Below are positions 27,649 to 36,926 of a stretch of DNA of 64,000 nt, piece after piece (the first letter of the stretch is position 1; every line of letters starts with the position of its first letter). The notes under the pieces were generated by a model that had not been told where the DNA came from, did not search any database, and worked only from the letters and a program-made list of their open reading frames with translations. The stretch lies in the NCBI RefSeq assembly GCF_030013595.1, contig NZ_CP122768.1; one strand, written 5' to 3'. Made by a program: the position numbers and the translations under genes. The stretch comes from Escherichia coli (lineage in GTDB: Bacteria > Pseudomonadota > Gammaproteobacteria > Enterobacterales > Enterobacteriaceae).

Positions 27649-29337
27649 ATGAGTGGTGAAAAAAAGGCGAAAGGCTGGCGGTTCTATGGTCTTGTAGGTT
27701 TGGGCGCAATAGTACTGCTTTCCGCTGGCGTCTGGGCGTTGCAATATGCTGGCAGTGGGCCAGAAAAAACGTTGTCGCCGCTGGTGGTGCACAACAATCT
27801 GCAAATCGATCTCAATGAGCCGGACCTCTTTCTCGACAGCGACTCTCTGAGCCAGCTTCCCAAAGACCTCCTTACCATTCCGTTTCTCCACGATGTTCTG
27901 AGTGAAGATTTCGTTTTCTATTATCAGAATCATGCCGATCGTCTGGGCATTGAAGGCAGCATTCGCCGCATTGTCTATGAACACGATCTCACGCTGAAAG
28001 ATAAGCTCTTTTCGTCACTCTTAGATCAGCCCGCGCAGGCGGCGCTATGGCACGATAAACAAGGCCATCTTTCACATTACATGGTGCTGATCCAGCGCAG
28101 TGGTTTAAGCAAACTGCTGGAGCCATTGTTGTTTGCCGCTACCAGCGACAGCCAGTTAAGCAAAACGGAAATCAGTAGTATTAAGCTAAATAGTGAAACC
28201 ATCCCGGTTTATCAGTTGCGCTATAACGGCAATAACGCCCTGATGTTCGCGACTTATCAGGACAAGATGCTGGTGTTTTCCAGTACGGATATGCTGTTTA
28301 AAGATGACCAGCAGGATACCGAAGCCACGGCGATCGCAAGTGATTTGTTGAGCGGTAAAAAACGCTGGCAAGCCAGCTTTGGCCTGGAAGAGCGTACTGC
28401 CGAAAAAACGCCAGTACGCCAGCGCATCGTGGTCAGCGCCAGGTTGCTGGGGTTTGGCTACCAGCGATTAATGCCTTCTTTTGCTGGCGTACGCTTCGAA
28501 ATGAGCAACGACGGCTGGCATAGCTTTGTGGCGTTAAATGATGAATCCGCAAGCGTAGATGCCAGTTTCGATTTTACGCCGGTATGGAACAGTATGCCTG
28601 CCGGGGCCAGCTTCTGTGTGGCGGTGCCGTATTCGCATGGTATTGCCGAAGAGATGCTTTCGCACATCAGCCAGGAAAACGACAAGCTGAACGGGGCGTT
28701 AGATGGTGCTGCCGGGCTGTGCTGGTATGAAGACTCAAAATTACAAACCCCGCTGTTTGTCGGTCAGTTTGATGGCACTGCCGAACAGGCACAACTTCCA
28801 GGGAAACTGTTTACGCAAAATATTGGTGCGCACGAAAGCAAAGCGCCAGAAGGTGTTTTGCCGGTAAACCAGACTCAGCAGGGCGAAGCGCAAATCTGGC
28901 GTCGCGAAGTGAGTTCCCGATACGGCCAGTATCCGAAAGCGCAGGCGGCGCAACCCGATCAATTAATGTCGGATTATTTTTTCCGCGTGTCGCTGGCGAT
29001 GCAAAACAAGACGATGCTTTTCTCCCTCGATGACACGCTGGTTAATAACGTCCTGCAAACACTGAATAAAACCCGCCCGGCAATGGTGGATGTGATACCC
29101 ACTGATGGCATCGTTCCGCTCTATATCAATCCACAAGGCGTGGCGAAACTGCTGCGTAACGAAACGCTGACCAGTCTGCCGAAGAATCTCGAACCGGTTT
29201 TTTATAACGCCGCACAAACTTTATTAATGCCGAAGTTGGACGCTTTATCTCAACAACCGCGTTATGTCATGAAGCTGGCCCAGATGGAACCCGGTGCCGC
29301 CTGGCAGTGGCTACCCATAACCTGGCAGCCGCTATGA
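27649..29337 (+). CDS. yfaA: exported protein of unknown function, first gene of the alpha-2-macroglobulin operon
   Basis: ORF 27607..29337 (GTG) trimmed to the ATG at 27649 with AAGGA upstream; 562 aa; N-terminal hydrophobic segment [18 protein letters not shown]. Confidence 0.8.
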
Positions 29338-29957
29338 GGCACGGGCTGCTGGCGCTGATTTGCTGGCTGTGTTGTGTTGTTGCCCATAGCGAAATGCTGA
29401 ATGTCGAACAATCCGGGCTGTTTCGCGCGTGGTTTGTACGCATTGCACAGGAACAACTCCGCCAGGGGCCAAGCCCACGCTGGTATCAGCAGGATTGTGC
29501 GGGCCTGGTGCGATTTGCGGCGAACGAGGCGCTGAAAATTCACGACAGCAAATGGCTAAAAAGTAACGGTATAGCAAGTCAGTATTTGCCGCCTGAAATG
29601 ACGCTAACACCTGAACAGCGTCAACTGGCGCAAAACTGGAATCAGGGGAACGGGAAAACCGGCCCCTACGTGACCGCGATTAATTTGATTCAGTACAACA
29701 GCCAGTTTATTGGCCAGGACATAAACCAGGCGCTGCCTGGCGATATGATTTTTTTCGATCAGGGCGATGCCCAGCACTTAATGGTCTGGATGGGGCGTTA
29801 CGTCATCTACCACACCGGAAGCGCCACGAAAACTGACAACGGAATGCGCGCAGTCAGTCTGCAACAACTTATGACATGGAAGGACACCCGATGGATACCC
29901 AACGATTCCAATCCCAATTTCATTGGCATTTATCGTTTAAATTTTCTGGCGCGATAG
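29334..29957 (+). CDS. yfaT: exported protein of unknown function
   Basis: ATG at 29334 overlaps the yfaA stop; 207 aa; signal peptide [19 protein letters not shown]. Confidence 0.8.
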
Positions 29958-36145: not shown

Positions 36146-36149
36146 TGCT

Positions 36150-36926
36150 ATGCGAAAGATTTTTCTTCCGTTGTTACTGGTGGCGCTTTCGCCTGTTGCC
36201 CATGGCGAAGGTGTGCAGGAAGTCGAGATTGATGCACCGCTCTCTGGCTGGCATCAGGCAGAGGGCGAAGATGCCAGTTTTTCACAATCGATCAATTACC
36301 CGGCGTCGTCCGTCAACATGGCAGATGATCAAAATATCTCAGCGCAGATCCGCGGCAAAATAAAGAATTATGCTGCGGCGGGTAAAGTTCAGCAGGGCCG
36401 GCTGGTGGTCAACGGTGCCAGTATGCCGCAGAGAATTGAATCCGATGGTTCATTTGCACGCCCTTATATTTTCACTGAAGGCAGCAACAGCGTGCAGGTC
36501 ATCAGCCCGGATGGGCAAAGCCGACAAAAAATGCAGTTTTACTCAACGCCGGGCGCTGGAGCGATCCGCGCGCGTTTACGGCTGGTTCTCTCCTGGGACA
36601 CGGACAATACCGATCTCGACCTTCACGTTGTTACGCCCGATGGCGAACACGCCTGGTACGGTAACACCGTGCTGAAAAACAGTGGTGCACTGGATATGGA
36701 TGTCACGACGGGGTACGGACCCGAGATCTTCGCCATGCCAGCGCCAGTTCACGGACGTTATCAGGTGTATATCAACTACTATGGCGGACGCAGCGAAACG
36801 GAATTGACGACCGCCCAACTGACGCTGATCACCGATGAAGGATCGGTCAATGAGAAACAGGAAACATTTATTGTACCGATGCGTAATGCTGGCGAGCTGA
36901 CGCTGGTGAAAAGTTTTGACTGGTGA
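36150..36926 (+). CDS. yfaP: exported protein of unknown function
   Basis: 258-aa ORF; ATG 4 nt after the yfaQ stop; signal peptide MRKIFLPLLLVALSPVAHG. Confidence 0.8.
   Translation: MRKIFLPLLLVALSPVAHGEGVQEVEIDAPLSGWHQAEGEDASFSQSINYPASSVNMADDQNISAQIRGKIKNYAAAGKVQQGRLVVNGASMPQRIESDGSFARPYIFTEGSNSVQVISPDGQSRQKMQFYSTPGAGAIRARLRLVLSWDTDNTDLDLHVVTPDGEHAWYGNTVLKNSGALDMDVTTGYGPEIFAMPAPVHGRYQVYINYYGGRSETELTTAQLTLITDEGSVNEKQETFIVPMRNAGELTLVKSFDW

Follow-up and report, generated by a model that had tools for sequence, protein, structure and literature searches.

The yfaA-yfaT-yfaS-yfaQ-yfaP operon of Escherichia coli, a five-gene counterpart of the Pseudomonas aeruginosa Mag macroglobulin system

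A 64,000-nt stretch of an Escherichia coli genome (contig NZ_CP122768.1; hereafter the window) carries five closely packed genes, yfaA-yfaT-yfaS-yfaQ-yfaP, that encode a bacterial alpha-2-macroglobulin and four partner proteins. We conclude from comparison of the encoded proteins, with very little doubt, that this operon is orthologous to the Pseudomonas aeruginosa Mag system and represents its five-gene Enterobacterales form. For its function we favor, at a probability of roughly 60%, a macroglobulin cage that lacks a thioester, is tethered to the inner membrane, is tied to the sacculus by partners with peptidoglycan-related folds, and shields the wall from incoming hydrolases. The locus itself is an ordinary, intact version of an operon already known and annotated in E. 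coli, and work on its ortholog goes back to 2013. The open reading frame (ORF) listing bore out the five same-strand ORFs described in the original prediction:

27649-29337, plus strand: yfaA, 562 aa; predicted single-pass inner-membrane anchor with a periplasmic DUF2138 domain; MagB counterpart
29334-29957, plus strand: yfaT, 207 aa; predicted secreted NlpC/P60-like DUF1175 protein; MagC ortholog
29891-34495, plus strand: yfaS, 1534 aa; thioester-less (type II) bacterial alpha-2-macroglobulin; MagD ortholog; alternative PGAP start at GTG 29981
34496-36145, plus strand: yfaQ, 549 aa, GTG start; predicted secreted three-part protein; MagE counterpart
36150-36926, plus strand: yfaP, 258 aa; predicted secreted DUF2135/YfaP_C protein; sole counterpart of the MagA and MagF paralogues

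The gene order of the operon is shared well beyond E. coli. A profile of YfaA homologues led to 253 confirmed stretches, of which 80 loci came from species-representative genomes, and tblastn searches of these 80 with the five E. coli proteins found the order A-T-S-Q-P in all 80 loci; the same order surrounded three distant YfaQ relatives (30-32% identity). In P. aeruginosa magABCDEF (PA4492-PA4487), MagB, MagC and MagD, then MagE and MagF, correspond in sequence order to YfaA, YfaT, YfaS, YfaQ and YfaP, and the two systems have in common a near-identical bait, the lack of a thioester cysteine, and exported products with one membrane-anchored partner. Identity to the Pseudomonas homologues was 67-77% for YfaT, the most conserved component, 52-55% for YfaS, 52-57% for YfaQ, 50-58% for YfaP (against the downstream Pseudomonas copy; 37-43% against the upstream one) and 43-48% for YfaA. 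YfaT also matched the PDB entry for MagC, 7BK8, over 186 residues (E = 3.4e-103, about 75% identity). Together with synteny, this match upholds the earlier naming of the P. aeruginosa operon as the studied relative.

The two systems differ in gene number, with five genes here and six there. Every complete Pseudomonas locus had one extra YfaP paralogue upstream (MagA), giving the six-gene magABCDEF layout, whereas this paralogue was missing from all Enterobacterales loci among the 80 (Escherichia, Superficieibacter, Entomohabitans, Enterobacillus, Yersinia, Edaphovirga, Serratia and Citrobacter youngae). In E. coli no YfaP-like ORF lies 5’ of yfaA; gyrA occupies that position. A third layout, A-T-S-Q-P-P, was seen in a metagenome contig (L092), where two tandem YfaP_C genes (9079-10870) lie downstream.

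Profile searches placed Pfam domains MG2 (9e-19), A2M_BRD (3.2e-16), A2M (1.4e-12) and bMG10 (1.5e-5) on YfaS, in agreement with the gene identities and the family proposed for it originally; on this domain content, YfaS belongs to the alpha-2-macroglobulin/complement C3 superfamily. A single-sequence search of the PDB with YfaS returned only weak matches, to C5 and CD109, and did not reach ECAM or Sa-A2M. The CxEQ thioester motif is absent from the YfaS sequence, and the corresponding site is degenerate:

33086-33112, plus strand: PWGGVINTG, aligned with PYGCVEQTA of relatives

The site reads PYGGVEQTA in most Pseudomonas homologues, so that GGVIN in E. coli stands against GGVEQ there. PYGCVEQTA or PYGCVEQTS was present in 13 of 78 macroglobulins from Mag-type operons (YfaS-homologue positions 1066-1074), and the macroglobulin of the distant L092 operon (2669-7315) has YPFGCIEQ, an intact CxEQ. 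Because these proteins keep the motif, the thioester seems to be ancestral to Mag-type operons and to have been lost stepwise, with Escherichia the most degenerate. By this alignment, the absence of a thioester from the operon-encoded type II class is lineage-specific and not universal. In one further homologue the cysteine is shifted by position (PYCGVEQTA, locus L015).

The second functional site, the bait, was located by alignment with MagD, whose experimentally defined bait is ANRSERG, residues 847-853 (PMC5764988):

32441-32461, plus strand: TNRSERR, YfaS residues 851-857, aligned with the MagD bait

TNRSERR lies between A2M_BRD and A2M and is a putative bait, with cleavage predicted by homology with MagD. 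The flanking sequence RxVKxLERPRRE(E/D)VDTAAW hardly varies between E. coli and Pseudomonas. Across 78 sequences, YfaS residues 841-880 (32411-32530) showed 0.63-0.82 identity to E. coli, which is higher than in most of the other 20-residue windows (0.15-0.86). The baits of classic macroglobulins are hypervariable. Judged against these, the conservation of the YfaS bait region in the alignment is unusual.

YfaS resembles the type I macroglobulins (E. coli ECAM/YfhM with PbpC, and Salmonella Sa-A2M) in its macroglobulin-domain architecture with a bait region, its predicted inner-membrane periplasmic site, and the genetic coupling of the macroglobulin to peptidoglycan-fold proteins. Unlike them, it lacks both a CxEQ thioester and a neighboring pbpC, its predicted anchor is a separate membrane protein, and the coupled proteins are NlpC/P60-like, PBP-like and SpoIID-like (PBP, penicillin-binding protein) instead of a bifunctional synthase. 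No pbpC stands beside the operon, whose neighbors are gyrA and atoB; these neighbors and the missing thioester motif agree with the earlier placement of YfaS in the class unlinked to pbpC.

The start of yfaS determines whether the protein is exported and whether its gene overlaps yfaT. The 67-nt overlap of the two genes, given as about 67 nt in the original prediction, stands only if yfaS begins at ATG 29891, which has a Shine-Dalgarno sequence (GGAAGGA) 6 nt ahead of it; it disappears with the PGAP start, GTG 29981, which yields a 1504-aa product without a signal peptide. ATG 29891 is present in all 75 related loci, but it falls within invariant yfaT codons (T-R-W-I-P). In Pseudomonas and Yersinia a second, ATGA-coupled start at the yfaT stop yields a short, classic signal peptide, whereas in Escherichia ATA replaces this start, leaving the upstream ATG with its 67-nt overlap. 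ATG 29891 is therefore the sole canonical start in Escherichia that would give an exported YfaS. The resulting N-terminus is best read as a signal peptidase I signal (ANA|DD). It contains a lipobox-like IAAC string, but the hydrophobic core comes after it, and a lipobox anchor appears unlikely, in further difference from type I proteins.

Each of the five products has a single hydrophobic stretch at its N-terminus (best 12-mer Kyte-Doolittle score 2.2-3.0), and hydropathy analysis found no second transmembrane-like segment in any of them. By this measure all five are predicted to be exported, with YfaA as the membrane anchor, which matches the signal peptide or membrane anchor originally ascribed to every product.

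Among the partners, YfaT matched DUF1175 (2.9e-58) and, weakly, NlpC/P60 (8.9e-4), and its Cys55, His148 and His160 were invariant in 80/80 loci. YfaA matched DUF2138; its predicted model was of moderate confidence (predicted local distance difference test score, pLDDT, 78) and resembled only non-enzymatic periplasmic sandwich domains, which fits a role as an anchor or scaffold like MagB. YfaP matched DUF2135 (5.6e-17). Profile searches with YfaP and YfaA against PDB sequences gave chance-level matches only. In a scan of NCBIfam, an equivalog model for YfaA was the sole match; a BADH match on YfaP was discarded as noise (18 bits against a 669-bit cutoff).

The predicted model of YfaQ, built from a 64-sequence alignment (pLDDT 95; predicted template modeling score, pTM, 0.92), comprises a class D beta-lactamase/PBP-like domain (about aa 22-245), a SpoIID-like domain (about aa 256-445) and, after these, a C-terminal module. 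The corresponding sequence matches were marginal (PBP, E = 0.13; SpoIID, E = 4.5e-4), and a single-sequence PDB search found no match for YfaQ. Profile alignment placed PLGSLWKL on the PBP SxxK motif, RSCGLYF on SxN, and E334 on the glutamate of SpoIID VVASEM. The PBP-type motifs are altered, with SCG in place of SxN and KTW in place of KTG, and the middle domain has both the SpoIID fold and the glutamate of the E-Y-x-x-x-V-x-x-x-E motif. Among the 64 sequences, chosen as diverse representatives, only 23 columns were invariant; these consist almost wholly of the motif residues, four cysteines, and H520-E521-x-x-H524:

36053-36067, plus strand: HEYLH (HExxH), YfaQ aa 520-524, invariant; on a helix in the C-terminal module of roughly 100 residues

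E536 and E540, on the helix next to the HExxH helix, are nearly invariant, and the module may form a small zincin-like site.

The fold relatives of the YfaQ N-terminal domain are probably the BlaR1/MecR1 sensor-proteases and the class D beta-lactamases, with the SxxK, S-x-(N) and KT(G) positions kept, and those of the middle domain are the SpoIID/SleC lytic transglycosylases, with the SpoIID glutamate position kept. Like BlaR1, YfaQ has an HExxH motif in addition to a class D-like domain; unlike the polytopic BlaR1/MecR1, it is predicted to be soluble and periplasmic. Pfam describes YfaQ by a SpoIID region and two DUF2300 matches, at residues 84-205 (34745-35110) and 412-532 (35729-36091), with E about 1e-43 to 1e-45. 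An internal duplication was considered and rejected: the two segments share no BLASTP similarity and lie in different structural domains, and DUF2300 seems to be a composite family. We likewise make no claim of novelty for the fold, as the transpeptidase-like and SpoIID-like architecture of E. coli YfaQ was published in mSystems in 2025 (PMC12282094). In that study ΔyfaQ cells were wider, their phenotype clustered with those of mepK, mepS and nlpI mutants, and the signal of a YfaQ-msfGFP fusion was undetectable; it makes no reference to the macroglobulin operon, to MagE or to the HExxH motif (PMC12282094).

Much is published on the Mag proteins of P. aeruginosa. Work from 2018 showed that MagD traps a protease (TEV) non-covalently once its bait is cleaved, that trypsin, chymotrypsin and papain each cut the bait, that MagB anchors and stabilizes MagD and is needed for its stability, membrane location and processing, and that MagA and MagF each bind MagD 1:1 (PMC5764988). 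A MagA-B-D-F complex is located at the inner membrane. MagD is processed from 165 to 100 kDa and is controlled by RetS/Gac/RsmA; the 100-kDa form occurs in vivo only with the complex present, and deletion of magE changes the MagD forms. MagC reportedly binds peptidoglycan, according to a 2021 study in FEBS Letters. The DUF1175/MagC family is NlpC/P60-like and has been classed as an inactive peptidoglycan binder (Journal of Biological Chemistry review, 2023). In 2025 a CRISPR interference screen found that the mag operon protects P. aeruginosa from the peptidoglycan-targeting type VI secretion system (T6SS) effectors VgrG3 and Tae1 (PMC12663445).

These reports, with the ΔyfaQ phenotype, have overtaken the view that the operon has no assigned function: MagD trapping, MagC peptidoglycan binding and T6SS protection by mag are all in print. 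The roles of the four partners, held to be unknown, now have precedents in the MagB anchor, MagA and MagF binding, the MagC peptidoglycan binder, and the 2025 work on YfaQ. The idea of a protease-trapping or envelope-protection machine fits the ortholog literature.

According to the protective-cage reading, YfaS would form a periplasmic alpha-2-macroglobulin cage without a thioester, kept at the membrane and stabilized by the single-pass inner-membrane protein YfaA (MagB-like) and bound by YfaP (MagA/MagF-like). YfaT would act as an NlpC/P60-like peptidoglycan binder and, together with YfaQ (PBP-like and SpoIID-like folds plus an HExxH module), would link the system to the sacculus. The trigger would be a foreign hydrolase in the periplasm, such as a protease, a peptidoglycan-targeting T6SS effector or a lysozyme-like enzyme. 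A cut in the exposed bait of the TNRSERR region would then close the cage, which would hold the enzyme non-covalently and protect the cell wall. The orthology, domain content, degenerate thioester site, conserved bait and purifying selection behind this scheme were obtained here; complex formation, non-covalent trapping and protection from VgrG3 and Tae1 are carried over from P. aeruginosa. By analogy, we infer that the E. coli proteins act like the P. aeruginosa ones, and that YfaT and YfaQ may position the complex or sense damage.

Several observations weigh against the protective cage. VgrG3 is a glycan hydrolase and not a protease (PMC12663445), and bait cleavage thus cannot trigger the response to it. 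MagE has been located in the cytoplasm, and neither MagC nor MagE forms a stable binary complex with MagD. A conserved bait suits dedicated cleavage better than a broad-spectrum lure. The wider cells of ΔyfaQ occur in K-12, whose yfaS is truncated, which implies that YfaQ at least acts without an intact macroglobulin. In the papers searched, the E. coli literature on the operon amounted to the ΔyfaQ morphology and incidental mentions, and we found no protein-level work on the operon, no study of yfaS or operon function, and no defence phenotype. A consensus scan detected no sigma-70 site 5’ of yfaA, and independent knock-outs of the operon have arisen in the K-12, O157:H7 and ST361-type lineages.

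Alternatively, the operon would maintain or remodel the cell’s own peptidoglycan and not primarily trap foreign enzymes, with YfaQ and YfaT acting on the sacculus, the macroglobulin regulating, caging or scaffolding them, and a dedicated endogenous protease cutting the bait. We consider this the main rival, and unlikely. It would account for the wide ΔyfaQ cells and their clustering with mepK, mepS and nlpI in a strain with a yfaS stop, and it is consistent with the invariant PBP-like, SpoIID-like and HExxH motif residues of YfaQ, the invariant Cys55, His148 and His160 of YfaT, the bait conserved between E. coli and Pseudomonas, and the requirement of the complex for cleavage of MagD to 100 kDa in vivo. 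Enzymatic activity has been reported for no partner, however, and DUF1175 is described as inactive; the P. aeruginosa magD deletion phenotype is confined to attack by T6SS effectors that target peptidoglycan (PMC12663445), and the operon is dispensable and repeatedly lost among E. coli lineages.

The original hypothesis for bacterial macroglobulins, a colonization factor that neutralizes proteases of the host (neutrophil elastase or the serine proteases of the gut, for example) on their arrival in the periplasm, is less probable again. In its favor, neutrophil elastase alters the conformation of MagD, and mutants in magD show reduced virulence in chronic infection; the MagD bait is open to trypsin, chymotrypsin and papain (PMC5764988), and the basic YfaS bait looks by inspection like a good substrate for trypsin-like enzymes. 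Yet the relatives come mostly from soil and plant Pseudomonas and from insect-associated or environmental Enterobacterales, not only from animal colonizers, the operon is inactivated in the gut pathogen O157:H7, and E. coli already has a periplasmic serine protease inhibitor, ecotin, whose gene eco lies about 24 kb downstream in the closest genome. That the operon in E. coli is a relic in decay and of no functional importance, or else an anti-phage system, is very improbable. Three independent sets of inactivating lesions, the undetectable YfaQ-msfGFP, which suggests low expression (PMC12282094), and the promoter scan without a match could be read in this way; the low ratios of nonsynonymous to synonymous substitution (dN/dS, 0.04-0.15 across the five genes), the presence of the locus in 5398/5426 genomes, the phenotype of ΔyfaQ, and the lack of a match of any of the five proteins to a PADLOC model argue against it.

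A more speculative version of the mechanism, which we hold to be improbable, makes YfaQ/MagE the system's switch, sensing damage in the periplasm by a BlaR1-like logic. Broken peptidoglycan, in the form of free stem peptides or denuded glycan, would be recognized by its PBP-like and SpoIID-like domains, and the HExxH site would then cut the YfaS/MagD bait, arming or closing the cage beside the lesion. If true, this would explain why the bait is conserved and not hypervariable, why 100-kDa MagD appears only in the complex and magE deletion changes the MagD forms, and how a protease trap could guard against non-proteolytic hydrolases such as VgrG3.

We compared the operon with other E. coli genomes to assess its conservation. 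A 9.5-kb operon query matched 5398 of 5426 complete E. coli genomes, 5178 of them at >=80% coverage, and the best match was 99.9% identical; E. coli annotations of the locus read yfaA, yfaT, "alpha-2-macroglobulin family protein", yfaQ and yfaP. By these counts, the locus is chromosomal and core in E. coli. Across the five genes dN/dS was 0.07-0.15 against K-12, and for four genes (yfaA left out) it was 0.04-0.12 against E. albertii; on these ratios, purifying selection acts on all five.

The yfaS frame of the window is open throughout, with no internal stop or frameshift, as was originally noted, and alignment places the lesion of the interrupted K-12 pseudogene at W1368 (TGG to TGA), which cuts off the C-terminal bMG10 domain (about residues 1409-1517). 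An open frame does not single out the window, because intact is the majority state in E. coli. Lesions were counted as genomes with the exact 61-mer among the 5426:

33992-33994, plus strand: yfaS Trp1368 codon, TGG in the window and TGA in K-12; W1368* in 364/5426 genomes, mostly K-12 laboratory strains
35288-35290: window codon of yfaQ Y265*, O157:H7, 309 genomes
32027-32029: window codon of yfaS Q713*, ST361-type, 52 genomes
27659-27667, plus strand: A7GG homopolymer tract, yfaA codons 4-7, intact in the window

The three stop lesions together affect at least 725 of the 5426 genomes. In O157:H7 the A7GG tract of yfaA is also shortened by 1 nt and yfaS has a +1 insertion, and ST361-type strains additionally have two yfaA frameshifts, one of them within the tract. 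One G was lost from the tract in O157:H7 and one A in an ST361-type strain, and from its sequence the tract looks like a slippage hotspot that turns off the first gene. The operon was fully intact in 5/8 sampled annotated genomes. On the genome counts and the sampled genomes, an intact operon is the rule in E. coli, with recurrent lineage-specific loss. Proteins in which DUF2138 (YfaA) is fused to DUF2300/SpoIID (YfaQ) domains occur in some E. coli assemblies, which implies deletions that took out yfaT and yfaS.

Inspection of the junction letters reproduced the tight spacing first described. The yfaA stop and yfaT start share ATGA at 29334-29337, the yfaS TAA (34493-34495) directly adjoins the yfaQ GTG at 34496, and a 4-nt spacer (TGCT) separates yfaQ from the yfaP ATG at 36150. 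Co-transcription of the five genes is inferred from this packing only. The operon lies between the following features:

24873-27500: gyrA, upstream neighbor of yfaA
27520-27537, plus strand: terminator-like hairpin 3’ of gyrA, a 7-bp stem then GTTTGAATTG; upstream boundary of the operon
36966-36987: hairpin in the yfaP/atoB gap with T-runs on both strands; probable bidirectional terminator
37000-38184: atoB, convergent, downstream neighbor of yfaP

No convincing plus-strand terminator was found within the operon, where terminator-like matches were at chance level (16 against 10.9 ± 3.6 expected), and no Rfam family was matched in or around it at gathering thresholds. By inspection, a single GGA motif (ACAAGGAAUG) overlaps the yfaA Shine-Dalgarno sequence. 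Control of yfaA by CsrA, reminiscent of the Gac/RsmA control of the Pseudomonas mag operon, was considered as a possibility; we found no paper linking yfaA and CsrA, and no Rfam match.

Outside the operon locus, the window differs from the best-matching genome, NZ_CM149870. A 323-aa ORF at 4688-5659 lies between yfaU and glpC, at the site of an annotated ISNCY-family transposase in the closest genome, and the IS3 element between atoS and rcsC of that genome is missing from the window (about 44260-44420).

Little is understood of the type II bacterial macroglobulins as a branch of envelope defence in Gram-negative bacteria, and E. coli genetics offers the easiest route to their study. K-12 is the wrong strain for this purpose, as its yfaS carries TGA at W1368; the O157:H7 and ST361-type strains are natural knock-outs as well, and the operon is intact in most wild isolates. 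Bacterial macroglobulins of both classes are genetically coupled to peptidoglycan-fold proteins, type I to PBP1c and type II to NlpC/P60-like, PBP-like and SpoIID-like proteins. For the type II operon, the conserved bait and the invariant active-site motifs of the partners offer precise targets for point mutants.

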